Shown: positions 8,143 through 40,896, counted from the first letter of the stretch. The stretch is DNA of 64,000 nucleotides from GCA_000165345.1 CM000432.1:320001-384000; one strand, 5' to 3'. The notes: generated from the sequence alone by a model not told the origin. Numbers and translations are program-made.

Positions 8143-8154
8143 ACGCGCCAAAAA
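8143..8154. promoter_or_regulatory. E2F-like box ACGCGCCAAAAA in the divergent promoter of the DUF726 gene (-) and diflavin reductase gene (+)
   Basis: Matches the TTTSSCGC-type consensus; the gap is otherwise AT-only. Confidence 0.45.
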
Positions 8155-8607
8155 TTGAATTATTTAATTAATTGTCAGATAAAGCAAGAAATATGCTTTA
8201 TAATTATAATATTATTAATTATTAAAAATTAATAATAAATAGTCTTTTAATCATATTCATTTATTTGAAGATTCAAGAATTTGTCACACATATATTTATT
8301 CATATTTAATTCTTATTAATTCATCATTAATGGTAATTTGATTAACAAATAAAGTAAATTGAAAATTATAATAAAAATAAAGTCAAAATTTTGGTTCCAT
8401 ATTTATGAAAATTATAAAATAATAACAATAAAAATAATAATAATATTTTGGACATTTTATTAATCAAATAATTTTTATTGTTAGTTTAGTTTTTAAAGTC
8501 ATCTATTCAATTTTGGAAAAATTGCATTAATATTTTCCAAATAACTACTAATATATGGATATTTTATCAATTAAATACTATTTAGAACAAATATTATCAA
8601 GACAAAA

Positions 8608-11034: not shown

Positions 11035-11045
11035 TATTAATTAAT

Positions 11046-13469
<2,424 letters not shown>

Positions 13470-13619
13470 ATTGATTTAATATAAATGAGAAGAAAACTAT
13501 TAAAACAATTTCAAAGTAATAGATTTCTTCTCATATGAAAAAGAGGAATGGTAACTACTATGGATCTTTATTGATTTATTGATCAATTATTAATAGAAAT
13601 ACTTCTATATATATAACTA

Positions 13620-13895
13620 TTTGCAATGGCGGGCACCATATATTATATTAATAACCATATATTAACAGTAAACTGAACAAATAAATTTTAAATTTAGAAG
13701 AATTAATTGATTAATGTTTTAAAAATTAATGAATTATTTCATAAATGAATTTGTAGATTTATTAATTCCTAAGAGCTTTATTTTTCTTTTTTTTTTTAGT
13801 CCAATAATCTTTGATTTTATTTTATTCATCAATATAAAAAGTATTATAATTTTTTTTTTAGGGCTACACACAAAATGGAAAGTGGCGCCATATTT
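13620..13895. promoter_or_regulatory. Divergent promoter region with E2F-like boxes (ATGGCGGGCACCAT 13627..13638; GTGGCGCCAT 13883..13890)
   Basis: GC-rich palindromic boxes in an otherwise more than 80% AT gap between divergent genes starting at 13469 (-) and 14303 (+). Confidence 0.5.
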
Positions 13896-14302
13896 TAAAT
13901 TTATTAATAAATAATATTTCTTTTTTTTTTTTGTTTTTTTAATAATTACTGAATAATTAATTGAAAAGGAAAGTGAAGAAATAAGGAAGAAAATATTTGT
14001 AATAATAACAACAAATAATACTATTGAAATTAGTACAAGGAACTATATTCCAATTCTAAAGTTAGTTATTCTAATTAGATAAGAAAAATCAGGTAATATT
14101 TAGAGATTTGAAATTAAAAGAGGATTTTGTTTATATATATATAAATAAATAAAAATAAGAATAAAAGGCTAAGATTTTAGATTAATAGTTTGAATTTGGT
14201 ATTGAATAGCAAGATTTATCAAATTTAAAAACTAATAATAACAAACTTGACTTAACTTATTATATTTTAGAAATTCCTTACTTTAAGTTTGTGTTAAAAA
14301 CA

Positions 14303-17442: not shown

Positions 17443-19503
<2,061 letters not shown>

Positions 19504-20097: not shown

Positions 20098-23000
20098 TTA
20101 TAACTTTTTTATTGTTAAGGTTCCCTTATGTAAATACCAAAACTTTTTAATTCCATTCAAATTTCTAATATCATGAGCAACAATAAATGTAGTTGAATGG
20201 CTAAAATACTTAAAAATAATATTTGTAATCAAAGTCGATTTCTTGTTTGAAGTAGAGTTCATATTCACATTATCATTACAATAAATTACCGGTGGCTCAT
20301 CAATCAGTAAAATACTTATTTCATTTCTCTTTAAGAAGTAATGAGTAAATAATAACAACCTCTGTATTTGCATTGGTAAATTTAATTCACTAATCTTCCT
20401 GTTCAAATAATTATTCATTATGGTAAGTCTGTCATTTCCCATTAAAAGAGGTGCACTTTCATCTGGTTTTTTCTCTCCCACAAAAGAATTTTTGAAATTT
20501 ATCTTATGGTTAAAATTATTCATGGTTTCTCTTTCTAATAAATAATTAGTTACACCACATATGTTCAATGCAGAAATTATGTTATCATTTGAATAATTTT
20601 CAAATGGGTCAACAGATTCTCTTATTGTTGTATTCTCATTAAAAAATACCTCAACAGGAAGCATTGCAACATGTCTCATCATATTATAATCTTCCAAAAA
20701 TATCTTCATTATTTCTTCATCCACATTACTCCTACATAACTTGCAGTTTACTAAGTGGTTGCTGTTTAGTAAATTATTATTGGAAGAAATTGGATGGCTT
20801 ATTTTTCCTTTATGTTTCAAAGATTTTGCTATTAAAAATAGTAATGAAGTTTTTCCAGACCCTGATCGTCCAACTATTCCTATTATCTCTCCTTTATTTG
20901 CTATAGCATTTATATTATTTAAACAACAAACTTGTTTTACCAATGTTCCTCTAACTTCTGAACGATCTAATTGAGATTTCTCATTCTCCGTTGATAAATT
21001 TGAATGATAACCATATGCTGACTCTAATATTATATTATTATTTTGGTTCATTTTTATATTGTTATCATATTTCACATTATTGTTTTCTAATAAATCATTC
21101 TTCATTTTGTATTCATCTTTAATAAGCTCCAAATACTTTCTCATCCTTTCCACAGAAACTAATTCCTTTTCTAGTCGCATTAAATACCTCACAACCTCGT
21201 CAATTCTGCTTAGAGAACCAAAAGCAGTAGCAATCATTAAAGCTATTAATATTTTTGAACTTCCATTTGAAAAATATGATGAAAATACATTGAAAAATGT
21301 TAATGGAATAATAATTCCAACTTGAAGTCTAATCTTTAGCCAAGCTTCCAGAGAAGATTGAATATATATTGGTCTCATAATCTCTTGAAGCTGGCCATAT
21401 CCATTTTCTAAATAAAATCTGTCCAACTTCTGAGGTCTTATACATTCTTTTCCATCGCATATATTTCTAACTGTATCTACTAATAATGAAATCTCTGAAA
21501 TATAAGTATTATGTAATAATCTGCATGAATGTATAAAATACCTAAATATATATTTATATATTATATAGAAAAGTATTGAGAATAATATAGTCTGTATTAT
21601 TGGATATTCTGAAGCTAATATAGATAAATATATTGTTGCCAATACTCTATTAACTGCTGTAACAAATTGTCCAACCCTTTTAGTTGTACAATAATCAATT
21701 GTGAGTTGGTCCAAGCTGATTCTATTCAATATAAATGATACTGGTATATATCTGATACAAGAAGAAAGTTTTGATCCAATATATCCTAATAAAAATGAAT
21801 TATGCAAATTATTCGCAGCTCTTAATCCAACGTAAACTTCTAGAATACCGCTTGCAATGACTGATAGTATTGCCAAAAAAATACAAACAAAATATGTGAA
21901 ATAAAGAATATCAACACCTATAATTCCTCCAATTTTACTTCCTGTTTCACTTACTAGTGATAAATTACCTAATAGTACTTTTTCTCCAAATAATAAAATG
22001 AATTGATGAAGCAATAGTAATACCAAATAAAGTATCATTTCTAATGATGATTCTTGAATCTTTTCAGTAATTGACCAATTTTTTGGATATTTAAATCTAT
22101 TTGCAGCTTTCAATATATAGAAAAATAAAGTAGAGTATGAGTTTTCTGAAGAGCCACCTAAAACTTCTTTTTTTGGAAGAAGCTCAATAAATTCTTCAGT
22201 TTTTTCCTCACAACATTTTAAACTATTTAATCCCATATCCACCCTATTTTCATACTTTATATGAGTTTGGCTATCAGCAATTTCACTTTCATTACCGTTA
22301 GAATTACTACTTAAATTTAAGACTTCATCCTCCTCAGTAGAAAGTTCCCACAAATCTTTAGAAAAATCAGTATCAAAGCAGAAATCATTAATAATAGAAT
22401 GTATACTGGAAGATGTATTAACACTTGTAGTTGATTTTGGTGATTCAATATTGACACCAAAACTCCTATTTTCACCATATTTGAATGGTATTACGTGTAT
22501 TATAGATTCCAGAATATTATTAGGAAGGAAATTAAGCATTTGAGTATCCAAAATCATTATAGAAAATACATGTTTCAGTAATCCATTTTCATGATTAAAT
22601 AGTTTCTCAAGTATTGAACAACAAACTGGAGGATCCAAACTACTAAATATTGAATCTAATATCAAAATTGGAACACCATCTTGAAGATTGTTGTTAGATT
22701 CATCATTTTTAGATTCAATTCCATATAATGCTCTTGAAAGAGAAAGGCGAACCTTTTGGCCTCTACTGAATTGAACTTGTGAGAATATAGTACTTCTGGC
22801 CATATCATAAGTTGAAATACCCCAAGATACAAAGTCATTCCTTAGCTCACAAATATCTATAACTCTCTCCCATGAATCCTGGTCATAATCTCTTCCATTC
22901 AAAATAATATCAGCTAGACTCATACCATCTGTAATCCACGAATCCAAGGGAACATAACATACTGGGTTAGAAATGTCTGCCAATATATTCGATATTTCTC

Positions 23001-24570
23001 TTTTCTTTTGCAATTTACTCCTATTATTACTATTTTCAATTGTTTGATCATTTACTCCTAAAATATCCCTTCTTTCTAACTCAATCCTAATTCCATCCCT
23101 ACCATTAACTCCAAAAACCACCCTCCTACATAAATCAGTTAACAAATGATTATAAGATATATCATTACACGAAAATATTACTGGTACTCCATACTTCATC
23201 TCTATTTTTTTGGGAATGTTGGCGCCAAAAAGCATAGAATCTGCATGCAAAATAATATTTTCATTTTTGTCAATAACTTCAAAAGAAGTCGAAGTTTTGG
23301 CGGGAAATTTGCTTCTTGTAATTTGCATTAGTTTTGCAAGTCTATTAAGAGCATTATTTCCTTCTGAGATGTAATATATAAGATAACATAATTCCTGAAG
23401 TGGGGTGTAAAAGGATGGGACAAGAATTGCAGAGTCAATGATCATTTCAATACTTTTGTAAGTATCAAAGTGGTTATACCATACATAAATAGAAATAATT
23501 CCATAACAGAAATATCCCATAGACCTGGATATAATTTCTTCAATAGTAAAAAAGTATTTTCTGAAAGATCCAAAAAGCATTTCGTTTCGTCTGGATTCAG
23601 ATAAAAGTTTGTGAAAAGTGGAAGTAAAATGGTCTTGAGTAAGATTTAAAGACCTTGAATTTTCAATAATATTAGTAGTTTCAGCAATTCTCTTTTCCCT
23701 ATGAGCAATAAATGGCTTTTTGAAGAGAGTACTAATAAATAAAGATATTATAGCTCCAGCAAATAAAGTTGATAAGGAAAAGATTAATAATTTCATGGAA
23801 TGATCATCAAAAGTTTTGATAGCAATTGCAAAAGTGGAAGCAATTTTTATTGGAAAGATGAATATTCTAATTGAATACGAGATAGCATTTTCTGAAAAAT
23901 CAGAGTCAACTGTAATCACATTTTGATATCTCGAAATCTTCGACTTTGGAAGTTGTTCAGAATCTTCATTTTGATATAAACAAAAATTAGAATCACAATT
24001 TGAAAGTCTTAAAAGTGAAACTCCATTAATAGCTCCAATTACTCTTGCTCTAACTCTCATAATATAATACTTGAGATGAGTGTCAGATAAAAGAAAAGTA
24101 GCTTTTAGAATAAAAATGAAAATACTCGCAACCAGACCAGTTTCTTTGCTTCCAGCTGTTCTAGTACCTATTAAAGCTCCTATAAAGAGAATTCCCTTGT
24201 ATTTAACAAAAGCATCCAAAGCAATCAATAGAAATGTCAATATAACATACCTACAATAATCTTCTTTAAATGCTTTTAATATACTTAAATACATATCAAG
24301 TCCTGACCAGTTCTTATCACCAAGCTGATTTTCCTTTTCTTTTATTACTTTCTCCAAAGTTATTGTATCTTCCTTCACTGAATGAATATTATATCCAAAT
24401 GGGATAGCTTTAGATTTAAGAGTAGTTAAATTACATTTATAATTACTATTATCTTTGTTTTTTTCCTGATCATTTTGATGATTCTTAAATAAATAGTTAA
24501 CAGTTTTGTCAATTTTATTTAGAAATAGATTGTCAATAAAACTTAATATCGAGCTGAATTTATTTGACAT
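20098..24570 (-). CDS. ABC transporter, ABCC(MRP)-like full transporter (TMD-NBD-TMD-NBD), 1490 aa; copy 1 of a tandem triplet
   Basis: NBD2 has Walker A GRSGSGKTSLL, Walker B ILLIDEPP and H-loop IVAHD. NBD1 has signature FSRGQKVRLSLSRALY and Walker B ILILDSIFSSLD but no P-loop. Two polytopic TM domains. Confidence 0.9.
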   Translation of the reverse strand: MSNKFSSILSFIDNLFLNKIDKTVNYLFKNHQNDQEKNKDNSNYKCNLTTLKSKAIPFGYNIHSVKEDTITLEKVIKEKENQLGDKNWSGLDMYLSILKAFKEDYCRYVILTFLLIALDAFVKYKGILFIGALIGTRTAGSKETGLVASIFIFILKATFLLSDTHLKYYIMRVRARVIGAINGVSLLRLSNCDSNFCLYQNEDSEQLPKSKISRYQNVITVDSDFSENAISYSIRIFIFPIKIASTFAIAIKTFDDHSMKLLIFSLSTLFAGAIISLFISTLFKKPFIAHREKRIAETTNIIENSRSLNLTQDHFTSTFHKLLSESRRNEMLFGSFRKYFFTIEEIISRSMGYFCYGIISIYVWYNHFDTYKSIEMIIDSAILVPSFYTPLQELCYLIYYISEGNNALNRLAKLMQITRSKFPAKTSTSFEVIDKNENIILHADSMLFGANIPKKIEMKYGVPVIFSCNDISYNHLLTDLCRRVVFGVNGRDGIRIELERRDILGVNDQTIENSNNRSKLQKKREISNILADISNPVCYVPLDSWITDGMSLADIILNGRDYDQDSWERVIDICELRNDFVSWGISTYDMARSTIFSQVQFSRGQKVRLSLSRALYGIESKNDESNNNLQDGVPILILDSIFSSLDPPVCCSILEKLFNHENGLLKHVFSIMILDTQMLNFLPNNILESIIHVIPFKYGENRSFGVNIESPKSTTSVNTSSSIHSIINDFCFDTDFSKDLWELSTEEDEVLNLSSNSNGNESEIADSQTHIKYENRVDMGLNSLKCCEEKTEEFIELLPKKEVLGGSSENSYSTLFFYILKAANRFKYPKNWSITEKIQESSLEMILYLVLLLLHQFILLFGEKVLLGNLSLVSETGSKIGGIIGVDILYFTYFVCIFLAILSVIASGILEVYVGLRAANNLHNSFLLGYIGSKLSSCIRYIPVSFILNRISLDQLTIDYCTTKRVGQFVTAVNRVLATIYLSILASEYPIIQTILFSILFYIIYKYIFRYFIHSCRLLHNTYISEISLLVDTVRNICDGKECIRPQKLDRFYLENGYGQLQEIMRPIYIQSSLEAWLKIRLQVGIIIPLTFFNVFSSYFSNGSSKILIALMIATAFGSLSRIDEVVRYLMRLEKELVSVERMRKYLELIKDEYKMKNDLLENNNVKYDNNIKMNQNNNIILESAYGYHSNLSTENEKSQLDRSEVRGTLVKQVCCLNNINAIANKGEIIGIVGRSGSGKTSLLFLIAKSLKHKGKISHPISSNNNLLNSNHLVNCKLCRSNVDEEIMKIFLEDYNMMRHVAMLPVEVFFNENTTIRESVDPFENYSNDNIISALNICGVTNYLLERETMNNFNHKINFKNSFVGEKKPDESAPLLMGNDRLTIMNNYLNRKISELNLPMQIQRLLLFTHYFLKRNEISILLIDEPPVIYCNDNVNMNSTSNKKSTLITNIIFKYFSHSTTFIVAHDIRNLNGIKKFWYLHKGTLTIKKL

Positions 24571-24927
24571 TTTTCCTTCTTTTTAAATGTATTATTATTA
24601 TGTACTTATTAAAATATTTTCTTGAAATATTGAAAATTATTCAGAAAAAAAACTTCAAATAGATTTGATGACTTTAAACAAATTAAAACCCAGTTTATAA
24701 ATTATCAAACAAGTAAGAGAAAGTTAATTTCGGGAAGAAAAGTATTTAAAATAATTTAAATACCTTACTCCTTTTAAATTCTCTAAATTAATCTTATTAT
24801 TACAATAAACTCTTATCAATTACATACAAAACCCTCAAATTCAATTATTTTAACCTTGTTTATTTTAAAAGTACATCAAAGATATCATTAATCCTGTTTA
24901 TCTTTTTTTCATGACTTTTTTATTACC

Positions 24928-24992
24928 CACGAGACGTGCCTTTTTGGCGCCAACTGCATTGATGCACATTTGTCAGAATTGCATACCGGCAT
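24928..24992. promoter_or_regulatory. Promoter cluster upstream of ABC copy 1: TTTTTGGCGCCAA (24941..24953), TGCATTGATGCA, GCATACCGGCATG
   Basis: E2F-like palindrome plus an ATACCGG core about 370 nt upstream of the ATG at 24570. Confidence 0.5.
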
Positions 24993-25112
24993 GAGGGACT
25001 AAACAACATAAAAGGGACAAAAGTGACAAAAATCAAAAACAAAAAAAAATGAAATCATTATATATTAAATTAAATTAAATATCAATTAAAGAAAAAAAGA
25101 TTAAAGCCAGCT

Positions 25113-28100
25113 TTAGCCCATATTTGTTTTGACAAAGCTGAATAGTTCGGAATTAGTAAATGAATTGTGATCAATTTGTGTGTCCCTAACTATCTTTCCA
25201 CTACTCAAAACAAGAACACGGTTTACATATTGAAGACTTCGGATATCATGTGATACTATGAATGTAATGCAATGCTTAAAGTATTGGTTAATGACCGATG
25301 AAAGAATACATCCAGATCTATTGGTATTTCCCAAATTTTCATTAAAATTTTCTTTATCTGTCCTTTTATTTAAAAGCTTACGACTTCCCATCTGATTTCT
25401 TAAAACTACTGGAGGTTCATCAACTAGTAAAATCCTTAATTTTTCTCTTTTCAGGAAGAAGTTTACAAAAAGTAGCATTCTCATCTGGAGAATACCAAAT
25501 CCAGTCTCATCTAATTTAGTTTCAAGAAATCTTTGAATTGTATTATTTTCATTTAACAAAGCACTTTCCTGATCACATTCTGTTAATTCGGATTCAAGAT
25601 TTAAGCTATCACTTCTTTCCAAGTATGATCCAAATCCACAAATGTTCAAAGCTGATTTAATATCATCTAATTCGTATTCATTGAGAGGATCAATCATATC
25701 TCGAATATTACCATTCTTGGGGAAGTAAATCTCTAAAGGTAAAAAAGCTATGTGACTTAGATCTTCCTGGAACTTAATTACTGATTTAATGATTTCCTGA
25801 TCAAAATCTTCAAATTGGAATCCAATTCTTTCTAACTTGTCTAATATTTTCTCATTATTTTTTTCCAAACCTGTAACTGTCATTCTTCCATTTGCACACA
25901 ACAATATATTTGAAAGCACATCCAATAAGGTTGTTTTTCCAGAACCTGTTCTTCCTACTATTCCAACAATTTCTCCTGCACTAAACTTTGCTGTAACTCC
26001 ACAAATACTTGTAACATGAGTCACTTTTGTACCTATTAAATAAGAATTATCAAAATTGGAGTTTCCTTGAGATTCTAATCGAGAATGTTGCGCTTTAATA
26101 TTCTCAAGTTCAATTTTAACTTGTCCTTTACTTTTCACATTCTGTTGTACCCCTATTCCACATTTTAAATATTCTGTACCAGCCTCTCTAGATGCAGCCA
26201 AATATAGTCTAGATCTTTCTACTGAGACAAGTTCTGTTTCTAGTTTTGTCCAGTAACCAACGAGAATAGACAATAAAGGAGCTAATCCCGTTGCTGTAGC
26301 TATAGCTAATGCTAGAATAGATCTAGTTGATGATTCTTGACCACTTGAAATATAAGGTAAAACAATGTTAATGAGTGTAATAGGAATTGTCAATAAAATC
26401 TTTATTCTCATCTTAAACCAAGCATCCAAACATATTTGAGCAAATCTAGGCTTCAATACTGAGTTAATTCTATCCACACTAATTTTAAAGAAGAATTCTT
26501 TGACTTGGGTAGAAGTTAGACATTTCTTTCCTTTACCAATAGTTTGAATTGTATCAACAAGAGGGGAATATTCAGAAATATAACATGATCTTAAACTTCT
26601 ACACCCATTAATAAAGTATCGTATAAAGAAGTAATATATTGAAGACCCAATAAGGCCAATTATAATTAAGGTAAGTAATGAATTAGCAGATCCAAAAATC
26701 AAAGGAATTACAGAAATGATGACTGAATTTAAAATAATAATAACAAATCGAATTCTTCTGGTAATACAATAGTCAATATGTAGTTGGTCATTAGTGAGTC
26801 TGTTTAATATAAAGCTCAAAGGGAACCATCTTAAAATAGAATTTGAAGTTGCTCCCAAATAACCAAGTAATAATGAATTATGGAAATATCTTGCAGCTCT
26901 AAAACCAATTCTGATTTCTAATAGAAGAGCAAAACAAATAGAAACCATTGAAATAATTAAAGCTGTATTATAGAAGGAGAACCAAAAAGAAAGTACATTA
27001 TGCCCAAAGAATGAAGGTATTCCAAACAAGATTGCTTTAAATCTCCCTAAAGTGCTTGAATTAAAGAAAACAACAGAATTCCAATTTAATTGAATACTCT
27101 CTTCTCTGAGAATGATTAAAAGTAAGGATTCTCCAAGCTTTACCATAATTGGTGGAAGGATCAATAAAAATATCATTAAGTAGGATTCAATAGAAGAACC
27201 TGAAAAATCTTTTTTATTAGAATAGATGTCTTGAATGAATCTTTTAGATCCAGAAATAAACATATAAAAGTAATTAGTAGGATAATAATAACTGAATTTG
27301 TTCTTTTTTATATCAATTCTACTAGTTGTCTCCATTCTTTCGTTACTTGGAATTTTGTACTTTTGAAGATATTCTCGGGAATCAGCTTCAACTTGGTTAG
27401 ATCTTTCCTTAATACTTGAATCAAAAGACACCAATTCCTCAAATGAATTTTGAATACAATTAACAGTTACTTCCTCAGTACTTGTAATCACTTTGTTATT
27501 CATATTAATTACCTTATAAGAAAAACCATTATTACTCGAAGCTTGTTTTACAGATTCCAATATTGGAGGTTCTATGACTATTATTGATATACAATCAGAT
27601 AATAAACCATTTTTAGAGAAAAGTCTCTCAATTACAATCTTACAAACAAATGGATCTAAGGAATTAAGCACACAATCAATTAAAAATACTCTTGGCTTCT
27701 TTTCATTTGATGATAAGCAAGAATAAATCGCTCTTGCAATAGATAACCTCACCTTTTGTCCTGCACTAAATTGCTTATCCGTAACAACGAGACGTTTTGC
27801 ATCATCGAAAGATTTTACACCCCAATTTAAGAAGTCCAACTCTAGGTCACATTGATATATTACTTGTTGCCATAATTTCTCTTGATATTCACCTCCACAA
27901 AGAATCAGATCTGATAATGGAAGACCACTTAAAATCCATATCAACTGTGGAACATATCCAACTAAAATCTTTGAAGAGATTTCACAAACATTTTCAACTT
28001 GACCATTTTCTAACTTAATCGAAAATAGCCCGCCGGCGCCAACATCATTCATTTGGCCATTTTGGCATGCAGTGGAATTGAAGAGAAACCCAGCAATTCC

Positions 28101-29522
28101 TTCAAGAAGAGCGGATTTTCCACTCAAAATTTTTCCAAGAACAAAACAAGGTGTCCCAGGAGAGAGTGTGAGGTTGAGATTAATAACACTTGGAGAAACA
28201 TTTTTTCCACGAGAGAAAGTAATATTATTGAGTACAATACTGGATACAATAGAATTTGAACCAGTGTTTAAGTTAGAATTGATATTTTGGTCTGGGTCAT
28301 TTTGAGTTAAAAAAAGAAACTGTGCAATTCTTTCCATAGAGATTTTACCTTCAATAATATAATAGACGAAGAAGATAATATCATTAAGAGGATGGTAGAA
28401 AGTGGGAATTAGCCATACACTTTGAATAATCATTAGAGAAGCTTTGGCAACAGGGAGTTTGTTGTATAGAATGTAAGATCCAATAACAAGAGTGCAGGAT
28501 AAGGTAATCCAGTTATCAAATATTTCGCTGGCCATGCAAACATATTTTCTAAGAGAGTTGAAATGTAATTCAACGTTTCTTTTTCTCTTAATTAAATTAT
28601 GAATAGAGGGAAACAGTTGTTGAGTAACTGATAAATATTTTGACTGCTCGAGAATACGAGTAGTTTCCTCTACTCTTTCTTCTCTTGCTTTGAGAAAAGG
28701 TTTTTTATACATTGAACTTAAATATTGAGTGATTGCTGCAATTGTAAAGCATGAAAATAATGCAATTAGACAAAGAATAAGAGGAGTGCCTCCGAACACT
28801 GAATGAGCCACTAGAGCTGAAATTAATATATGTATAGGATAAAGTATAATGTTGATGGAATTTGAGACGGCAAATTCTGTGAACTCAGAATCTACTAAGA
28901 TAATGTTTTGATATAAAGATAGTATTTCTGTTGAGCTATTATTATCTAGAATGCAAAGCCCTTGCTTATTTTTAAGTTTTTTACATTCAAGAAACCTTAA
29001 AAGTGAAGATCCAGAAATAGCTGATTGTATTTTAAAGTGTATCCATGAATTGTAATACTCACAATGTGTTGTTAATATGATACTAAATAATTGAAGTATA
29101 ATTAAAAATAATCCAGGTAGTATATTTAACCAATTCAGTTTTGATGAGGTTTCTGATACAAAAAAGTTGAAGAATTCTTTTGCTTGAAACTTTACAAAGT
29201 ATGAAATGGCCAGATTAATTGAAAAGAGAAGAAAATAAATGCCATAAAATCTTCTAAATGTTTTAAGTATAACTAAATAAACTGAAAACCAAGTCCATAT
29301 ATCTTTTCTATCATTATAATTTAGCTTATCATAGTCTCTGAAGGCTTTTTCTAATATTTTAATATCATTAATTGACTCCTCGTTTTTATATTCATCAGGT
29401 ATTTCAGAAGATCGAATATTTCCTCTTTGTTTTTCCCTATTTTCACGTTCTTTAATTAAAAGTAATTCAGCTGTTTTTCCAGCTTTTAATAGTAAGATAT
29501 TATCAAAGAATGATTTGAACAT
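25113..29522 (-). CDS. ABC transporter, ABCC-like full transporter, 1469 aa; copy 2 of the tandem triplet
   Basis: NBD1 P-loop retained (VLGKILSGKSALL) with signature FSAGQKVRLSIARAIY. NBD2 has GRTGSGKTTLL, LLVDEPP and an SHD H-loop. Confidence 0.9.
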   Translation of the reverse strand: MFKSFFDNILLLKAGKTAELLLIKERENREKQRGNIRSSEIPDEYKNEESINDIKILEKAFRDYDKLNYNDRKDIWTWFSVYLVILKTFRRFYGIYFLLFSINLAISYFVKFQAKEFFNFFVSETSSKLNWLNILPGLFLIILQLFSIILTTHCEYYNSWIHFKIQSAISGSSLLRFLECKKLKNKQGLCILDNNSSTEILSLYQNIILVDSEFTEFAVSNSINIILYPIHILISALVAHSVFGGTPLILCLIALFSCFTIAAITQYLSSMYKKPFLKAREERVEETTRILEQSKYLSVTQQLFPSIHNLIKRKRNVELHFNSLRKYVCMASEIFDNWITLSCTLVIGSYILYNKLPVAKASLMIIQSVWLIPTFYHPLNDIIFFVYYIIEGKISMERIAQFLFLTQNDPDQNINSNLNTGSNSIVSSIVLNNITFSRGKNVSPSVINLNLTLSPGTPCFVLGKILSGKSALLEGIAGFLFNSTACQNGQMNDVGAGGLFSIKLENGQVENVCEISSKILVGYVPQLIWILSGLPLSDLILCGGEYQEKLWQQVIYQCDLELDFLNWGVKSFDDAKRLVVTDKQFSAGQKVRLSIARAIYSCLSSNEKKPRVFLIDCVLNSLDPFVCKIVIERLFSKNGLLSDCISIIVIEPPILESVKQASSNNGFSYKVINMNNKVITSTEEVTVNCIQNSFEELVSFDSSIKERSNQVEADSREYLQKYKIPSNERMETTSRIDIKKNKFSYYYPTNYFYMFISGSKRFIQDIYSNKKDFSGSSIESYLMIFLLILPPIMVKLGESLLLIILREESIQLNWNSVVFFNSSTLGRFKAILFGIPSFFGHNVLSFWFSFYNTALIISMVSICFALLLEIRIGFRAARYFHNSLLLGYLGATSNSILRWFPLSFILNRLTNDQLHIDYCITRRIRFVIIILNSVIISVIPLIFGSANSLLTLIIIGLIGSSIYYFFIRYFINGCRSLRSCYISEYSPLVDTIQTIGKGKKCLTSTQVKEFFFKISVDRINSVLKPRFAQICLDAWFKMRIKILLTIPITLINIVLPYISSGQESSTRSILALAIATATGLAPLLSILVGYWTKLETELVSVERSRLYLAASREAGTEYLKCGIGVQQNVKSKGQVKIELENIKAQHSRLESQGNSNFDNSYLIGTKVTHVTSICGVTAKFSAGEIVGIVGRTGSGKTTLLDVLSNILLCANGRMTVTGLEKNNEKILDKLERIGFQFEDFDQEIIKSVIKFQEDLSHIAFLPLEIYFPKNGNIRDMIDPLNEYELDDIKSALNICGFGSYLERSDSLNLESELTECDQESALLNENNTIQRFLETKLDETGFGILQMRMLLFVNFFLKREKLRILLVDEPPVVLRNQMGSRKLLNKRTDKENFNENLGNTNRSGCILSSVINQYFKHCITFIVSHDIRSLQYVNRVLVLSSGKIVRDTQIDHNSFTNSELFSFVKTNMG

Positions 29523-29984
29523 TTTATTTAGTATAAAAGTCTGGGTAAATATTCAATATTCATACTTGTTTGTATTTGATCTAGTATTTAGTAATTTGGT
29601 GAAAACTTTATTTGTGTATTAAATGCAATGTGATTTAAAAAATTATAGTAATATTGATTGAATATCAGAAAATAAGTGTGATAAGAACTTCTGACTTTAT
29701 TAATCAGGTCTAGTTTGAATGTTATTTCCTTTAATAAAATTAAAACAAATAATTACTTCGATTTAAGTGCATAAATATGTAACTCTTCTAAAAAATTAAT
29801 ATTATTTCTTTAATTTTTGTCTTATTAAATTTAAACTAGTAATATTGAACTTAGATGAATATTCTTATAGATCAAATACTAAATATTAAATCAGAAAATT
29901 CATTAAATTATTCTTAATTGATTAATATTTATTTTTAATTTAGAGACAAAACATGCTACAATTATTATTATTTTTTTTAAATTG

Positions 29985-30050
29985 GCACTGGCTATACCGG
30001 TTATATATTTTTAATTTATACCGTTGCCACGTCATTTATTGACATGTGGA
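29985..30050. promoter_or_regulatory. Promoter elements upstream of ABC copy 2: GCTATACCGGTTAT; CCACGTCAtttatTGACATGTGG
   Basis: ATACCGGT core and a CACGTCA/TGACATG inverted pair about 470 nt upstream of the ATG at 29522. Confidence 0.4.
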
Positions 30051-30292
30051 CAAATATTTAAAAAAAAAAATTGGTTGAAATCATGATTAATAATAAATAA
30101 ATAAATATTAAAATAAGGTATATTTACAAAAAAAAATATTTTTGAAATTTTCTTACTACATGGTTTTTTATTTTTGTGAAAAGGGAGTTACTAAATGTAA
30201 CTTTATCTGCTAATAGTTAATATACAAACTGTAATAAATTATAATTAGTATGAAAAGAAAAATACATATAGAAAATGTAATAGAGCTAGTTA

Positions 30293-33200
30293 TTAAGCTT
30301 CAAATACTCTAAAGTTGTTATTAATAATCAATAGACGGTTAATGCTTGAAATTTGTTCAAAATGATGTGTGGCAATAACCACTGAGCAATTTGGAAAGTA
30401 TTTTTTTAAAATAAAGTCAATAACTGAAATGTAACCGCCATCCTCTGTTGTTAACCTATAATTAGGTAGCTCGTCAAGAAGAAGTAGTCTGTATTTTTGA
30501 CTATTTAAAGCAAGACGAAGCAAAAGCAACATTCTTTTTTGATTCCCGTTAAAGTTAAAGTCACTTATAGGTAAATCAAGTATTTTGAGATTCAAGGGGG
30601 AGAGAATTAAGGGAAAAGATTCACAAGATTTAGGTGAAAATTCCTTATCTTGAGTTGATTGGTCATACAGTAAATTCTTCTTTTTATCAACAAGTCCAAA
30701 TAAATCCAATAAATCTAAAATTTCCAAGCTTGAACGAATATTCTCCGAATCCAAAACCTCTATTAGTTTTAAGTTCCCAGGAAAGTCTACTTTGATTGGA
30801 ACGTAAGCTATACCAGACAAAAATTCGAGCATTCTAACAGAATTCAAAAGAATGTTTGGATCAATTTCTGATACTTGCGTTATGGTTTTAATTCTTTCCA
30901 ATGACGATTCCTTCATCCTGTAGTAATCATCCTCTTTCTCATTATAGCTTTTGGTTTCAGTTGATTTATTATTACATAGGTACTGGCTATAACGTCCTCT
31001 ATAATTATTTCCACTTATGCTCCCACCTCTAAAAATAGACAAATACTTTCTTTTCTCTTGAACTTCTTTTCGTAATCCGTCTTCCAAACCTAGTAACCCA
31101 CCCTTGACTAAATTCTCAGCCTCATCGTTATCATCATCATTATCATCAACTCCTATTTGCTCATTCTCATCTCCTATTGTCAGTAATCCCCTGTGAACAG
31201 TTTTGGCGCCTTTATAAACTTCCATAATCCCACCTATCACCTTTAACAAAGAAGTCTTCCCTGAACCAGTTCTTCCGACAATACCAATGACATCGCCAAC
31301 TCTAATATTCAAATTTACTTTCCTCAAACAAGAGTACTGGATAAGGTTGTTATAGTTATTAATTGTTGAGGAAAATGGATCATTTCTTAGTTTAAGGTGT
31401 TTGCAGTCAACATTGTTCAATGTCATTAATAAAGAAGAATTCTCTGTTGAGTTAGAATAATCAATCTTCAGATTTTCACCAAACCTGTCATCTTGTATAG
31501 CCTCTATGAGAAGCTTCATTCTTGTTACTGCTAATAGCTCATTCTCCATTTTTACCCAATATTTCACTGTTGAGGAGGTAATCTTCGGAATTGTTAATCC
31601 TACACCAATAATAAAAATTACTATTTGTGGAATAGTTTTCTCATTTCCTTTAGAGTTTGGAAACAATATTGGAAACAAAACATTTATTGATGTTAAAACT
31701 ACTGGTAATAAAAAATCCAATCTTAATCTAAGCCATGCAAACATCATATTTTGACAATAAAGTGGCGCCATCATTTCGAGCGCCCTTCTATTGCATCTTT
31801 GCATCATGTACGAGGATAAATGGTTTTGATGAATATCGTCAATTCCGAGGTTAATAGAGTGTGCAATATCTGATATAGCTGTTTGAGAATTCAGGAAAAG
31901 TAGTCTAAGAGTTCTGCAAGTGTTTATAAAGTATGAAAGGTAGTTCCAGTATATAAATAACAAGAAAAGAAAACCAATTGGAATACAAGTCATTGGATCC
32001 TTAAAGTTAATTACAAATGAGATAATTATAAATGCGATAATTTTGTTAACTTGGTGAAGAATTTGTCCAATTCTTTTTGTGATACAATAGTCAATTACTA
32101 GTTGGTCATTTGAAAGATGACTAATTATACTGGATACTGGAATTATCTTTATTATTGAATAACTTGTTAGGTACCCATATAAAATTGTATTATGAATATA
32201 ATTAGCAGATTTCAATCCAATATAGATCTCTAGAAAAATTGTTACCACAAAGTTTAATAAGATTATTGAGCAATAATGCATGTACTTAGCTAAGTCCTTA
32301 AGTATATTTGAAGTTTTCTTCAAGTTATTAATTATCTTGTACTCAATTATCTTAAATGACAACAAAGGAACTGTTGATAATAATAAATAAACAAAGATTA
32401 AGGACTTATTTCTCTTAATGCTTGAGGTCTTATTCATTTTTGTATCAAATTTATATCTTATTTTATCATTTGTATGAAATAAATAATAGTTTAAAGAATT
32501 TGAGATCAATCCACTATTTCTTATTGATATTAAGCTATCTAAATCCCTCTTTATTCCCATCTTTCTGTTCTCCTTTTTTAAGCTAATTGATGAATTTGTC
32601 TCGGGTATTAAATTCTCATTCATATTATTATTATTAATAAAGTATATTATACTCTTCAAAAGTTCCTCATTTTCACATGGATCTTCACTAATTAAATCCT
32701 TTATCCCAAGAATGTATTGACTCATAATCTTAGAATCCTCACTAATATCAGTTACTTTTATTGTACATGTTTTGTTATATTCTAATATTGTCTTATATCT
32801 ATCTTCAAATATCAAACTTTTACAAGAATTTAAATAAACTGTGAAAAAAAATAAGTTAAGTAAATCTGGACTTATTGAGATTATTCCAAAACTAGAACTC
32901 AATATTCCTGAAAGTTTGTCATCTTTATTGAAAAGTGAATAAATCATTCTACAACTTGTCTCTCTATCCAATGAGTCAAAAATATTCTCTATAAAATATA
33001 TTACACTGTAATTTCTTCCTAAAGGACCAGTTGAAACTAATGATGAAGTTGAATAATCCAAGCTTTTTGTATTTTCAGAGCTCCCAATACGATACACTGA
33101 ACTTTGAATTAGCTTACAATAAAGAGACCTAGCAAAGGATATTCTGATTCTTTGACCGGTACTTATTTGCTTGCTATTAATAATATCATTCAAATTAATG

Positions 33201-34861
33201 CTTTTATTGAATATATCAGTATCTAACTGGCAAATATTGATAACTAAATTCCATAAATGATAGTCAAAAGGTTGATCACAGATAATCATTTCTTCAAGCT
33301 TAGAATTATCTAGAATCCAAGATTTCTTACTAATATAACAGGATAATTTGGCCAATTCTCTGTTATTATTTAAAGAAACAATGTTCTCTGAATCTTTCAT
33401 TTTACATCTAAGCAGGAATCTTGAGTTATATATATCTTGACCTGTTGAAGTACTTGCAATATCCTTAAAGAAACTTGGGATTTTTTGATTTGGATTATCT
33501 CTTTCATAATCAAAAACTATGTTTAGACATCCTTTATTTAATATTATATTTTCACCAGAACATAAGTCCTGAATCTCAATTTGTTCTACATTATCCATAT
33601 TAGTTTCATCTAGATCATGGAAATCTATATCATTAATACAAGAATGAGGATCAAATTCTGAAAGGACATCTTTAATTCTATTTACAGCATTTATTGCTTC
33701 AGTGATATAGTAGATCATGTAAGCAATTAAAGAAATTGGTTTCACTAGAATTGGTATAATGAAACTAGAATTTGTTAATATAGACAGAACCTCAGATCCT
33801 GTATGTTGATTACAATAACAATAGAAGGAAATTGCCATAAAACAAAGAATTTCCATCCAATGAGATCCAATTTCTCCAACACAAAACCATAATTTTCTAT
33901 ATTTATTGAATTTCATCTCTTTGAGTCTATATTTCTTAACCAAATTCATAAAAAGAGTATCATTAATATGAGTAAGTATAAAGTCATCATTCTGTGAAAT
34001 TGACTTGGTTAAACATGATATTCTTTCTTCTCTAGCTTCCATAAAGTATTTCTTATAGCTACTACTTAACCATTGAGATATTATACTTATTAAACCAGTA
34101 ATTATAAGTATTATAATACAAAGATAAATAGATTTAGCATCAACAAACATATTTGATATTCCAAATAAGAAAAGTAAACTAAATGGGAAAGTGATAAGTT
34201 CCATTCCATAAGATACAATATATTCAGCAAATTCTCCATCAACTGATACAATATTTTGAATCTTGGAGAAATCTTGGGTATCGTCAAATAAAGATTTGCA
34301 ATTTTTCTTATTTAACCTCTTATTCTTCAACATCAAGTTCATTAGAAACAAAGTAAGAGCTCCTCTAACACGTATATGAAGTGTTTCTGTATAGTAATCA
34401 ACATAAATATTAAACAGAATTTCAATAATCTGATTGATAATTAGACTAACTCCTTTTACATATTCTGATCCAATTCCAAAACTTTCTTTGAACTTTTTCA
34501 AAGAGTAAGCAAGAAAAAACATTGTAAGCATTAATGAAATTTTTAAAATAAATAAAATAGTGTAACTGCTTTTGAAAGCAGAGAATATCATCCAAGCAAC
34601 TTTCCAAGTTGAAATTTCAGATTCAGGCCTAACCTGTTTATCATTATGGACATATTCAATATCTTTAGTAATAATACCATGTTGATTTCTTTTAAAGCAT
34701 GATTTGTATTTTTCATCGAGCCTTTTCGAGTCTACCTCCACTTTGTATTGCTTTCCAACATAATTCTTTAGCTTTTCTACATCAAACTCAGCACTTTCCC
34801 ATATCTTCACATTAAGTTTGTTGATTCTAAAGAAAAAAGGATCTCCTAGTAATGTATACAT
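30293..34861 (-). CDS. ABC transporter, ABCC-like full transporter, 1522 aa; copy 3 of the tandem triplet
   Basis: NBD1 signature ISTGQRIRISFARSLY without a P-loop. NBD2 has GRTGSGKTSLL and LLLLDELP. There is a large Asp-rich insertion in NBD2 (VDDNDDDNDEAEN). Confidence 0.9.
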   Translation of the reverse strand: MYTLLGDPFFFRINKLNVKIWESAEFDVEKLKNYVGKQYKVEVDSKRLDEKYKSCFKRNQHGIITKDIEYVHNDKQVRPESEISTWKVAWMIFSAFKSSYTILFILKISLMLTMFFLAYSLKKFKESFGIGSEYVKGVSLIINQIIEILFNIYVDYYTETLHIRVRGALTLFLMNLMLKNKRLNKKNCKSLFDDTQDFSKIQNIVSVDGEFAEYIVSYGMELITFPFSLLFLFGISNMFVDAKSIYLCIIILIITGLISIISQWLSSSYKKYFMEAREERISCLTKSISQNDDFILTHINDTLFMNLVKKYRLKEMKFNKYRKLWFCVGEIGSHWMEILCFMAISFYCYCNQHTGSEVLSILTNSSFIIPILVKPISLIAYMIYYITEAINAVNRIKDVLSEFDPHSCINDIDFHDLDETNMDNVEQIEIQDLCSGENIILNKGCLNIVFDYERDNPNQKIPSFFKDIASTSTGQDIYNSRFLLRCKMKDSENIVSLNNNRELAKLSCYISKKSWILDNSKLEEMIICDQPFDYHLWNLVINICQLDTDIFNKSINLNDIINSKQISTGQRIRISFARSLYCKLIQSSVYRIGSSENTKSLDYSTSSLVSTGPLGRNYSVIYFIENIFDSLDRETSCRMIYSLFNKDDKLSGILSSSFGIISISPDLLNLFFFTVYLNSCKSLIFEDRYKTILEYNKTCTIKVTDISEDSKIMSQYILGIKDLISEDPCENEELLKSIIYFINNNNMNENLIPETNSSISLKKENRKMGIKRDLDSLISIRNSGLISNSLNYYLFHTNDKIRYKFDTKMNKTSSIKRNKSLIFVYLLLSTVPLLSFKIIEYKIINNLKKTSNILKDLAKYMHYCSIILLNFVVTIFLEIYIGLKSANYIHNTILYGYLTSYSIIKIIPVSSIISHLSNDQLVIDYCITKRIGQILHQVNKIIAFIIISFVINFKDPMTCIPIGFLFLLFIYWNYLSYFINTCRTLRLLFLNSQTAISDIAHSINLGIDDIHQNHLSSYMMQRCNRRALEMMAPLYCQNMMFAWLRLRLDFLLPVVLTSINVLFPILFPNSKGNEKTIPQIVIFIIGVGLTIPKITSSTVKYWVKMENELLAVTRMKLLIEAIQDDRFGENLKIDYSNSTENSSLLMTLNNVDCKHLKLRNDPFSSTINNYNNLIQYSCLRKVNLNIRVGDVIGIVGRTGSGKTSLLKVIGGIMEVYKGAKTVHRGLLTIGDENEQIGVDDNDDDNDEAENLVKGGLLGLEDGLRKEVQEKRKYLSIFRGGSISGNNYRGRYSQYLCNNKSTETKSYNEKEDDYYRMKESSLERIKTITQVSEIDPNILLNSVRMLEFLSGIAYVPIKVDFPGNLKLIEVLDSENIRSSLEILDLLDLFGLVDKKKNLLYDQSTQDKEFSPKSCESFPLILSPLNLKILDLPISDFNFNGNQKRMLLLLRLALNSQKYRLLLLDELPNYRLTTEDGGYISVIDFILKKYFPNCSVVIATHHFEQISSINRLLIINNNFRVFEA

Positions 34862-35619: not shown

Positions 35620-35735
35620 AGTACCGGCATTCCCGCCATTTCCCGCCAAGTCAAATAATATTATAAGAGACGAGTATTTCAAGGCAAAAAAAAATTATTA
35701 AAAAAAACTGTTGGGGGTATTGGCGCCAAAAACAG
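35620..35735. promoter_or_regulatory. Divergent promoter (ABC copy 3 / pyrophosphatase): GTACCGGCATTCCCGCCATTTCCCGCCAAG (two tandem TTCCCGCCA E2F boxes) and TGGCGCCAAAAA (35721..35732)
   Basis: Three E2F-type boxes within 115 nt, between the gene starts at 34861 (-) and 36272 (+). Confidence 0.55.
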
Positions 35736-36271
35736 ATTTATTTATTAAACAAAACGTAGTGAATGAAATTAAAAAAGTTGAATATTTTAGACTGGAAATA
35801 TATATCTATATATATATATATATATTAATTTAAAATGATTAATTAGAATAATCAAAAAAGAGGGGGAAAAATAAAGCATTTAAGGAAATAAATTCAAAGT
35901 TGGAGGGTGAATTTGTAAATAGCGGGTAATGGATTACTATTAATATTGACATTAGACTAAATGATAACGAATCAAATTAGAGAGAAAGCAAAGGAAAAAA
36001 AAATAATAGTCAAGAAAATATTAGTATTAATAAATTAAAATAGAATTTTGGTTTAGACCTTTAAATTGGTTTGTATCATCTTTCTGAATCCCCCCCTAAG
36101 CTAAGAAAGAAGGCTAGGTTTAGGAATAATAAAGGATTGATTAAAAGATTAAATTGTGAATAAAAATCTTGAATTGAATCCTTTTTTTATATTCGATTTG
36201 GTATTTTACAAGGTACTAGATCAGAAATATAATTGAAATTTTTTAAGAAAAGTACAAATCTTCAAGTAAGA

Positions 36272-37423
36272 ATGAGTACTGAATACAGAGTGGGTTTTGC
36301 CTCGAAAGAGGATATTATAGAAAAAAGTACTTATGGAGAATGTGAGGATAGGACAAAAAGCTTGAGCTTCAGTAGTGATGTGAATAGTATTACTTATGAT
36401 GAAGCATCTTCATCAAGTGAGGAATATCCAGAATATAGTTTATTACGCACTCAAAGTTCTTTAGCTCCACCAATTGAGGCTTCTGCAATAGTAGATGTAG
36501 AAGAAGCATGGAAAGCCTTATCTAAAGAATTAGAAGAAAGTCATTCTAAACCAACAATTCGTACTCTTGGGACAGTTTTTGTAACAAGAGAAGAGGTTGG
36601 AACAAAAGATTCAATTGAATATAGATTATTTTATAAGAATGAAGATGGCTATAAGATTTCTCCATGGCATGATGTACCATTATGGTTTTCAGAAACACCT
36701 CTTTTATATAATATGATAATTGAGATTCCAAAATTAACAAATAAAAAATTTGAGATAAATACAAAAGAGGAATATACACCATTATATCAGGATCGAAAGC
36801 TGGAAAGACTTAGAACCTATCCAGGTCCAATTCCTTGGAACTATGGTGCTTTTCCACAAACATGGGAAGATCCAAATAAGAAGGGAGATGAGAATGTTGA
36901 TTTTAGTCATGGTGATAACGATCCACTGGACGCTGTTGAAATTGGAGTTGGACCTCTTCCACGTGGAACAATTATACAGGTAAAAATTTTGGGTTGCCTT
37001 GCTTTAATTGATGATGATGAATTGGATTGGAAAGTTGTATGTATTCGTGTTTGTGACCCACATGCATCACAGCTAAATGATATTACTGATGTTGAGAAAT
37101 ATTTCCCTGGTACTATAGATAGAATTAGGAGATGGTTTGGGCTTTATAAAGCAGTTGAGAATAAAGATGTTGCAAAGGTTAATATGTATGGACATTTTGG
37201 AGAGCCTCAATCAGCAGAGTTTGCTCATTCAGTAATTTTAGAAACTCATCATTCGTACTTACGTCTTATTAGAGGAGAGGCAATGAATTCATCATCATTA
37301 TGGATACCAAAAAGTCTTTCGAATAATGGAGAAACAGAATTGTGTCATACAGTATGTTCCACAAATAGCACTGCTACAGTATCTAGCAATGATATTGGAG
37401 GGCTTTCTGTAAATGATGATTAA
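36272..37423 (+). CDS. Soluble inorganic pyrophosphatase (family I) with N- and C-terminal extensions
   Basis: Family I PPase core: YNMIIEIPK, GDNDPLDAVEIG, DWKVV..D. The track ORF started at a TTG (36233); the first in-frame ATG is at 36272 (MSTEYRV..). Confidence 0.9.
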   Translation: MSTEYRVGFASKEDIIEKSTYGECEDRTKSLSFSSDVNSITYDEASSSSEEYPEYSLLRTQSSLAPPIEASAIVDVEEAWKALSKELEESHSKPTIRTLGTVFVTREEVGTKDSIEYRLFYKNEDGYKISPWHDVPLWFSETPLLYNMIIEIPKLTNKKFEINTKEEYTPLYQDRKLERLRTYPGPIPWNYGAFPQTWEDPNKKGDENVDFSHGDNDPLDAVEIGVGPLPRGTIIQVKILGCLALIDDDELDWKVVCIRVCDPHASQLNDITDVEKYFPGTIDRIRRWFGLYKAVENKDVAKVNMYGHFGEPQSAEFAHSVILETHHSYLRLIRGEAMNSSSLWIPKSLSNNGETELCHTVCSTNSTATVSSNDIGGLSVNDD

Positions 37424-40870: not shown

Positions 40871-40896
40871 TTCGGTACCATTTTTGGCGCCAAAAC
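40871..40896. promoter_or_regulatory. Divergent promoter box TTCGGTACCATTTTTGGCGCCAAAAC
   Basis: Perfect palindrome TTTTGGCGCCAAAA between the gene starts at 40340 (-) and 40966 (+). Confidence 0.55.

Follow-up and report, generated by a model that had tools for sequence, protein, structure and literature searches.

The stretch analyzed here, 64,000 nucleotides of Cryptosporidium parvum DNA (GCA_000165345.1 CM000432.1:320001-384000; hereafter the window), carries three consecutive genes for transporters of the ABCC family, which we call copies 1, 2 and 3 (Table 1). All three are intronless and lie head-to-tail on the minus strand, with transcription in the order copy 3, copy 2, copy 1. The original prediction, made from the DNA sequence alone, had described three same-strand paralogues of 1469 to 1522 amino acids (aa), and the open reading frames (ORFs) are just these. 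Our subject is the unequal state of the two ATP sites in these proteins. We consider it likely, with a probability of about 0.68, that the trio represents three ancient paralogous ABCC transporters, probably located at the feeder organelle of the parasite, that run on a single catalytic ATP site. Sequence look-ups give exact protein matches in several independent C. parvum assemblies (EAK87612, EAK87713 and EAK87614; CPATCC_001620-001622), and the 90% clusters of the three proteins also include members from C. hominis, C. meleagridis and C. tyzzeri. The sole difference between the old copy 2 model EAK87713 and the protein encoded in the window is a 10-aa N-terminal extension without Met.

With respect to family membership, phmmer searches of the PDB with copy 2 retrieve ABCC2 (3.6e-29), MRP1 (1e-25) and ABCC4, with matches that span the first transmembrane domain (TMD1), the first nucleotide-binding domain (NBD1), TMD2 and NBD2; the same search with copy 1 retrieves CFTR (5.6e-15), a plant ABCC2 (1e-14) and MRP1. 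On such homologies, all three copies are short-type ABCC full transporters (TMD1-NBD1-linker-TMD2-NBD2) with the superfamily type IV (type I exporter) fold. The Pfam model PF00005 (ABC_tran) scores above its cut-off for NBD2 in all three copies, with just part of NBD2 detected in copies 1 and 3, and from this partial detection we conclude that NBD1 is very divergent. Of the C. parvum proteins, copy 2 has the canonical pair of P-loops and copies 1 and 3 have the Walker A motif of NBD2 only; despite the missing P-loops, membership of the trio in the ABCC family, judged by homology, is not in doubt.

State of the two ATP sites

The D-loop of the opposite NBD contributes to each ATP site of an ABC transporter. 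The site is otherwise built from the Walker A, Q-loop, Walker B and H-loop belonging to one NBD together with the signature of the other, and the two D-loops stabilise the centre of the NBD dimer (PMC7756269). We have tabulated these motifs for 43 Cryptosporidium sequences (16 of copy 1, 13 of copy 2 and 14 of copy 3), using the plant protein P0040, a canonical ABCC, as the ruler, and the counts given below refer to this set. The elements of site 1, that is the Walker A, Q-loop, catalytic base and H-loop of NBD1 plus the signature and D-loop of NBD2, have decayed, wholly so in copy 1 as well as in copy 3 from the intestinal species, and partially in copy 2 and in the gastric copy 3. At site 2 all elements are conserved apart from the Q-loop Gln of NBD2.

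None of the 16 sequences of copy 1 has a P-loop in NBD1; CNDISYNHL-like residues stand in its place in the intestinal species and FGSISNNYI in the gastric ones. In copy 3 this loop has been lost from the 11 intestinal-clade sequences and is present as G[EK]SKSGKSS in the three gastric ones, and all 13 orthologues of copy 2 keep a GxxxxGK[ST] motif. An alignment-free search with a regular expression gives the same picture: one Walker A in 16/16 copy 1 and 11/11 intestinal copy 3 sequences, two in 13/13 copy 2 and 3/3 gastric copy 3 sequences, and no GxxxxGK[ST] in the NBD1 of any of the 27 copy 1 and intestinal copy 3 sequences. The loss of this P-loop from copies 1 and 3 and its retention in copy 2 (GKILSGKS), both of which had been predicted, are thus borne out by MAFFT and by the regular expression alike. 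The Q-loop Gln of NBD1 has disappeared from copy 1 and from copy 3 of the parvum-like lineage; copy 2, the gastric copy 3 and the C. bovis group retain it. As had also been foreseen, the NBD1 Walker B has no catalytic Glu, and this holds throughout the 43 aligned sequences: the acidic residue and its successor are D-S in copy 1, while copy 2 has D-C (as in the window) or D-S, and copy 3 has E-N (intestinal, as in the window) or D-N (gastric). The H-loop His of NBD1 is missing from all three copies, except that copy 1 of the C. bovis group has a His one position off. The NBD1 signature (xSxGQ) and D-loop (xLD) are, by contrast with these losses, invariant across the aligned sequences.

In NBD2, the Walker A (GR[ST]G[SC]GKT[ST]), the D-E of Walker B and the H-loop His are invariant among the aligned Cryptosporidium sequences. 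The NBD2 signature has lost its Ser and its second Gly in all three copies, with the Gln kept in copies 2 and 3; the claim that this motif is destroyed throughout is confirmed in that the motif is degenerate, the exact register being LPMQI / FGILQ / FNGNQ. The NBD2 D-loop has gone from every copy, leaving DEPP or DELP. The long inserts postulated between the NBD2 Walker A and signature are real as well: this span measures 164, 152 and 241 aa in copies 1, 2 and 3, versus 103 aa in the canonical plant ABCC. Copy 3 owes part of its length to about 85 extra residues, acidic and of low complexity, on the way from the NBD2 Walker A to the Q-loop region (window 30806-31249, aa 1205-1352), a stretch of 157 aa versus 71 aa in C. 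andersoni. Only the parvum-like intestinal lineage, part of the clade without an NBD1 P-loop, has this insert.

With proteins so highly divergent and so rich in inserts, and with the partial Pfam detection mentioned above, one might suspect that the motif losses are due to misalignment or to artefacts of sequence or assembly. We considered this explanation and reject it, giving it next to no credence. The motif assignments do not appear to be misplaced: MAFFT, the HMMER alignments to PDB entries and the alignment-free regular expression concur, and when HMMER aligns the proteins to CFTR and ABCC2, the NBD1 signature falls in the same register, as do the Walker A, Q-loop region and H-loop of NBD2. 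Sequencing error is excluded as the source of the odd motifs because identical proteins are found in independent C. parvum assemblies, and the motif states are conserved among the orthologues of the different species.

To these alignments can be added structure predictions for the two NBD1s without a P-loop, which were modelled with AlphaFold2 from 27-row alignments of orthologues and paralogues. The copy 1 model (aa 410-705) has a predicted local distance difference test score (pLDDT) of 79.3 and a predicted template modelling score (pTM) of 0.81; the corresponding values for copy 3 (aa 395-695) are 73.7 and 0.76. When these models were compared with the PDB by Foldseek, the top matches were ABCC3, ABCC6 NBD1, CFTR NBD1 and MRP1 NBD1, with E-values from 1e-9 to 1e-7. 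The NBD fold is predicted to be kept in both. At the former P-loop, the copy 1 model has the strand VIFSC followed by a two-residue loop and then a helix, and its phosphate-wrapping loop is predicted to have collapsed; the copy 3 model has a strand, a loop and a helix at the former Walker A.

Table 1. Positions in the window of the three ABCC genes, their NBD motifs, the adjoining genes and the E2F-like boxes near the array
Feature	Position	Strand	Details	Basis
Copy 1	20098-24570	minus	1490 aa ORF; probably cgd4_1370 / 'ABCC13'	exact match EAK87612 / CPATCC_001620
Copy 2	25113-29522	minus	1469 aa ORF; probably cgd4_1380	
Copy 3	30293-34861	minus	1522 aa ORF; probably cgd4_1390 / 'ABCC11'	
Copy 1 former NBD1 Walker A	23146-23172	minus	SCNDISYNH, aa 467-475	MAFFT vs canonical ABCC
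Copy 2 NBD1 Walker A	28110-28136	minus	GKILSGKSA, aa 463-471, retained	MAFFT and regular expression
Copy 3 former NBD1 Walker A	33485-33511	minus	DYERDNPNQ, aa 451-459	MAFFT
Copy 1 NBD1 signature	22756-22770	minus	FSRGQ, aa 601-605	MAFFT; HMMER aligns it with CFTR LSGGQ
Copy 2 NBD1 signature	27756-27770	minus	FSAGQ, aa 585-589	MAFFT, phmmer
Copy 3 NBD1 signature	33152-33166	minus	ISTGQ	MAFFT
Copy 1 NBD1 Walker B and D-loop	22633-22668	minus	ILILD-S-IFSSLD, aa 635-646	MAFFT
Copy 2 NBD1 Walker B and D-loop	27654-27689	minus	VFLID-C-VLNSLD	MAFFT
Copy 3 NBD1 Walker B and D-loop	32966-33001	minus	IYFIE-N-IFDSLD	MAFFT
Copy 1 NBD2 Walker A	20845-20871	minus	GRSGSGKTS, aa 1234-1242	MAFFT
Copy 2 NBD2 Walker A	25929-25955	minus	GRTGSGKTT	MAFFT, HMMER
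Copy 3 NBD2 Walker A	31250-31276	minus	GRTGSGKTS	MAFFT
Copy 1 NBD2 Q-loop position	20647-20664	minus	MLPVEV, Gln to Val, aa 1303-1308	MAFFT
Copy 2 NBD2 Q-loop position	25728-25745	minus	FLPLEI, Gln to Leu	MAFFT; HMMER register vs ABCC2 agrees
Copy 3 NBD2 Q-loop position	30788-30805	minus	YVPIKV, Gln to Ile	MAFFT
Copy 1 NBD2 degenerate signature	20365-20379	minus	LPMQI, aa 1398-1402	MAFFT
Copy 2 NBD2 degenerate signature	25485-25499	minus	FGILQ	MAFFT
Copy 3 NBD2 degenerate signature	30539-30553	minus	FNGNQ	MAFFT
Copy 1 NBD2 Walker B	20290-20313	minus	ILLIDEPP (D1424, E1425), D-loop absent	MAFFT
Copy 2 NBD2 Walker B	25410-25433	minus	ILLVDEPP (D1368, E1369)	MAFFT
Copy 3 NBD2 Walker B	30464-30487	minus	LLLLDELP (D1463, E1464)	MAFFT
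Copy 1 NBD2 H-loop	20170-20184	minus	IVAHD, aa 1463-1467	MAFFT
Copy 2 NBD2 H-loop	25245-25259	minus	IVSHD	MAFFT, HMMER
Copy 3 NBD2 H-loop	30362-30376	minus	IATHH	MAFFT
RING-finger gene	17443-19503		adjoins copy 1	zf-C3HC4
Soluble pyrophosphatase gene	36233-37423		divergent from copy 3	
E2F-like box of copy 1	24943-24951		TTTGGCGCC; upstream of the copy 1 ATG by about 375 bp	
E2F-like box near copy 3	35722-35730		GGCGCCAAA on plus / TTTGGCGC on minus; copy 3/pyrophosphatase intergenic region, about 860 bp from the copy 3 ATG	

Age, selection and probable location

The tandem triplication announced by the original prediction is real, but it is not a recent amplification: the three copies are only 25-30% identical to each other in pairwise comparison and the array is ancient. 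The identical array with the same flanks is present in C. andersoni, C. muris, C. serpentis, C. bovis, C. felis, C. ubiquitum and chipmunk genotype I, which makes eight Cryptosporidium species counting C. parvum, and the shared gene order is: pyrophosphatase (divergent) – copy 3 – copy 2 – copy 1 – RING finger – RCC1. Word-indexed protein searches missed the paralogues and the gastric copy 3 orthologues, and these sequences were taken as neighbouring genes in the respective loci. A neighbour-joining tree based on 1234 well-occupied columns and seven outgroup ABCCs gives a phylogeny with the trio monophyletic at 100% bootstrap, each of the three copies monophyletic (100, 100 and 89%) and copies 1 and 2 as sisters (99%). 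The split between gastric and intestinal species recurs within every copy. Since the same array is found in eight species and the species split lies inside each copy, both duplications predate the crown of the genus. The distribution of the P-loop on this tree implies that it was lost from NBD1 twice, independently. A profile search of 1.8 billion representative proteins places only Cryptosporidium sequences below an E-value of 1e-100; then, after a gap, from about 1e-38, come other ABCC paralogues of Cryptosporidium and the ABCCs of the coccidia Cyclospora and Eimeria. As regards the quality of the gene models, the C. felis copy 1 (L005 14501-19420) is annotated with 1202 aa and its ORF extends upstream to give 1531 aa, so that the public model is probably truncated at its N-terminus.

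The ratio of nonsynonymous to synonymous substitution rates (dN/dS) was estimated by the Nei-Gojobori method for C. parvum versus chipmunk genotype I or C. ubiquitum, C. felis having been dropped because its synonymous sites are saturated. Whole-gene values are 0.10-0.17 per copy. Within the proteins, the TMDs (0.05-0.13) and the NBD2 core (0.03-0.19) have low values, as does the C-terminal part of NBD1 with the Q-loop region, signature, Walker B and D-loop (0.07-0.21), and the insert region of copy 3 is under moderate constraint (0.18-0.20). The least constrained structured region is the N-terminal part of NBD1, which includes the former Walker A, with 0.35-0.44 in copy 1, 0.19-0.33 in copy 3 and 0.20-0.23 in copy 2, yet even there dN/dS remains below 1.

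The literature knows cgd4_1370, cgd4_1380 and cgd4_1390 as ABC transporters, the first under the name 'ABCC13' and the last as 'ABCC11' (PMC10774378 supplement; PMC6532270). Gene order and synteny make it very probable that copies 1, 2 and 3 correspond to cgd4_1370, cgd4_1380 and cgd4_1390, respectively, and this mapping is supported by the fact that the RING finger cgd4_1360 (PMC2408969) matches the zf-C3HC4 ORF beside copy 1. A 'stop codon gained' variant has been reported in cgd4_1380 between C. parvum IOWA assemblies (PMC12179316). In a TurboID study of the feeder organelle anchored on a glucose transporter, cgd4_1370 gave 16-21 and cgd4_1390 14-18 unique peptides, with none in the controls; six other ABCCs were found together with these two, and cgd4_1380 is unlisted (PMC10774378, Supplementary Data 1). 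Combined with the mapping of the identifiers, these peptides indicate that both P-loop-less proteins are made and are situated at or near the host-parasite interface, and the trio as a whole is probably located at the feeder organelle.

It could be argued that copies 1 and 3 are decaying, functionless or nearly functionless duplicates beside a functional copy 2, given that they have lost the NBD1 P-loop and other motifs, that the N-terminal NBD1 has the highest dN/dS of all, particularly in copy 1, and that the copy 3 branch of the intestinal clade is long. However, each species that we examined, on both sides of the deepest split within the genus, has intact ORFs of about 1500 aa, the motifs of site 2 do not vary, whole-gene dN/dS is 0.10-0.15, and peptides of cgd4_1370 and cgd4_1390 are abundant in the feeder-organelle proteome (PMC10774378). 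This explanation is largely refuted and we regard it as very improbable: the three copies are working genes under purifying selection, not decaying duplicates.

Flanking genes and E2F-like boxes

The window is AT-rich (GC about 0.18-0.35) and contains many long intronless ORFs. On the copy 1 side, beyond the RING-finger gene, there are genes for an RCC1-repeat protein, a bromodomain protein and a flavodoxin/FAD reductase, while a carnosine N-methyltransferase-like gene is found on the pyrophosphatase side of the array. Positions 8001-14000 are very AT-rich (GC 0.18-0.23); they contain a convergent pair of genes of about 808 aa each, for the flavodoxin/FAD-binding reductase and the bromodomain protein, whose ends are 11 bp apart (11034 and 11046).

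The sequence TTTGGCGC, which resembles an E2F box, occurs 13 times in the window, versus 0.26 times expected by chance, and mostly between genes. The original prediction had given each copy an E2F-box promoter of its own, and this holds only in part. Copy 1 has such a box, and a GGCGCC box is present at a similar position in the loci of chipmunk genotype I, C. ubiquitum and C. bovis. Near copy 3, a box lies in the 1.37 kb divergent intergenic region that this copy shares with the pyrophosphatase gene, and is conserved in chipmunk genotype I and C. ubiquitum. Copy 2, on the other hand, has no E2F-like box in its upstream region (29523-30292 on the minus strand, 770 bp), nor is there one in the orthologous regions of the intestinal species. 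Perfect palindromic E2F-like sites, TTTGGCGCCAAA, lie at 40883-40894 and 57018-57029, and three of the 13 boxes are inside ABC coding regions (23222, 31202; GGCGCC core: 28035, 31764).

A proposed single-site mechanism and its relation to known ABC systems

If the trio runs on one catalytic ATP site, ATP would be bound by the P-loop of NBD2, clamped by the signature (xSxGQ) and D-loop of NBD1, and hydrolysed with the help of the Walker B Glu and H-loop His of NBD2. Site 1 would have been freed from selection in graded steps. Copy 2 and the gastric copy 3 still have the P-loop there, and their site 1 is likely to bind but not to hydrolyse ATP, like that of CFTR or MRP1. In copy 1, throughout the genus, and in the intestinal copy 3, NBD1 would have become a nucleotide-free pseudo-NBD, retained perhaps as a structural partner, as donor of the signature and D-loop, and as a module for coupling to the TMDs. 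To judge from the motifs, site 1 would therefore be without catalysis in all copies and without nucleotide binding in copies 1 and 3, and site 2 would retain its ATPase activity and the trio its transport function. We are less confident of a further proposition, although we think it somewhat better than an even bet: that this is a full-length eukaryotic ABCC exporter that uses one nucleotide per cycle, with a nucleotide-free pseudo-NBD1, and that this state evolved twice in one cluster, the P-loop being lost from copy 1 before the Cryptosporidium crown and from copy 3 on the stem of the intestinal clade.

A number of points weigh against this mechanism. In every copy and every species, the NBD2 Q-loop Gln is replaced by Val, Leu or Ile, and for this reason site 2 is not fully canonical. 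The original prediction had called it so; this is overstated, although the Walker A, Walker B and H-loop of NBD2 and the xSxGQ and D-loop of NBD1 are indeed intact. The NBD2 D-loop and X-loop-like elements have diverged as well, and because of all these changes site 2 could be slow or regulatory rather than a normal motor. In favour of the mechanism, a change of the Q-loop Gln in MRP1 altered the kinetics and did not abolish function, which indicates that this residue tunes the cycle and is not what enables hydrolysis (PMC7756269). Both the absence of ATP binding by NBD1 and the ATPase activity of site 2 are read from motifs. On the structural side, Foldseek yields moderate TM-scores (0.46-0.67 when isolated NBD targets serve for normalisation) and the pLDDT of the copy 3 model is about 67-76 around the former P-loop. 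The location at the feeder organelle depends on cgd identifiers assigned from synteny and gene order rather than by sequence look-up. Finally, a published dN/dS of 0.86 for cgd4_1380 versus chipmunk genotype I (PMC6532270) conflicts with the 0.126 that we obtain for copy 2; an older gene model or a different method is a possible reason.

The loss of the NBD2 Q-loop Gln from all copies and species, together with the loss of the NBD2 D-loop and the long NBD2 inserts, would also suit proteins that are no longer ATP-driven pumps at all, but ATP-gated or ATP-sensing devices (a channel, a receptor or a regulator) or scaffolds of the feeder organelle, in which NBD2 binds ATP mainly as a switch. There are precedents, since the ABCC family has produced both a channel (CFTR) and a regulator (SUR) from asymmetric transporters (PMC7756269). 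Nevertheless, NBD2 shows no variation in its Walker B Glu or its H-loop His among some 40 sequences, which argues for continued selection on hydrolysis. The TMDs are moreover the most constrained part of these proteins, although a transport path and a pore would fit that observation alike. We consider such a change of function unlikely, though a good deal less so than gene decay, and prefer transporters driven by a single catalytic site.

Degenerate sites of ABC exporters are currently thought to keep binding ATP, thereby holding the NBDs together or tuning the cycle. If our interpretation of the trio is true, ATP at the degenerate site is not an obligatory 'glue', and copy 2 would be a built-in ATP-binding control. 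By their motifs, these genes appear to form a natural series of graded states in a single genome and a single genus, from a dead but ATP-binding site 1 (copy 2 and gastric copy 3) to a P-loop-less one (copy 1 and intestinal copy 3). Because this series is under purifying selection, the need for a nucleotide at the degenerate site during transport is directly testable. The proteins also appear to be among the more abundant transporters of the feeder organelle, the interface for nutrients and drugs between host and parasite, and this location combined with an unusual single-site chemistry could matter for inhibitor design. The trio is of use as a natural experiment and of moderate interest to ABC-transporter specialists.

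Comparison with MRP1, CFTR and SUR reveals several shared traits: the domain order is the same, the best matches in sequence and fold are found there, the NBD1 Walker B has no Glu, the NBD2 signature is deviant, and the P-loop of NBD2 and the signature of NBD1 together make up the one consensus site. CFTR shares in addition the loss of the NBD1 H-loop His. There are, however, two differences. MRP1, CFTR and SUR have an intact P-loop in NBD1, and their site 1 binds ATP tightly (PMC7756269), whereas copy 1 and the intestinal copy 3 have no such P-loop; and, unlike these proteins, all three copies have neither the Q-loop Gln nor the D-loop in NBD2. The 43-sequence alignments, the selection analysis and the structure predictions support the central idea of the original prediction, an asymmetry of the ABCC/CFTR kind taken further.

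In the profile search, the nearest relatives are apicomplexan ABCCs of a 'DEPP' type (from other Cryptosporidium loci, Cyclospora and Eimeria), which have in common with the trio the loss of the NBD1 H-loop His, a weak, LSxSQ-like NBD2 signature and DEPP without a D-loop. Unlike the trio, they retain in NBD1 a Walker A (GxxGSGK[ST]) and a D-D Walker B, and in NBD2 the Q-loop Gln; the trio forms a Cryptosporidium-specific clade separate from them (100% bootstrap). Specific to the trio are the P-loop loss (copy 1 and intestinal copy 3), the Ser, Cys or Asn after the acidic residue of Walker B, and the loss of the NBD2 Q-loop Gln. The non-Glu NBD1 Walker B, the missing NBD1 H-loop His, the weak NBD2 signature and the missing NBD2 D-loop, on the other hand, are not peculiar to these copies; because the closest outgroup ABCCs share such features, part of what the original prediction listed is a lineage-wide trait. 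In one 'DEPP' ABCC of 1587 aa from a Logan assembly (P0080), the NBD1 Walker A position reads EDHSSERLQI and Walker B is D-N, which may represent a further independent P-loop loss outside the trio.

The heterodimeric bacterial exporters TM287/288, EfrCD, Rv1273c/72c and CydDC resemble the trio in having asymmetric NBD dimers with a single catalytic site. They differ in being half-transporters made of two polypeptides, and their degenerate sites keep Walker A and bind nucleotide. A search of the literature on ABC transporters without Walker A returned a truncated ABCB5-beta isoform and unrelated cases only. The three genes and their clustering are already annotated and known; we found no description of degenerate NBDs in Cryptosporidium ABCCs in a literature search that did not cover the 2009 ABC inventory of Sauvage et al., and this aspect is apparently undescribed. 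The yeast transporter Pdr5, of the PDR/ABCG type, is comparable in that one of its composite sites deviates in all motifs. It retains the backbone of the P-loop and still binds nucleotide at the degenerate site. Its changes (Cys for Lys in Walker A, Asn for Glu in Walker B, Tyr for His in the H-loop, signature LNVEQ) are among the largest deviations known (PMC7756269). Pdr5 belongs to another fold class with reverse topology, and where the trio has lost the NBD1 P-loop, its Gly, Lys and Ser are all replaced. The complete loss of a P-loop, twice, in a conserved and expressed full-length ABCC goes further than the deviation of Pdr5.

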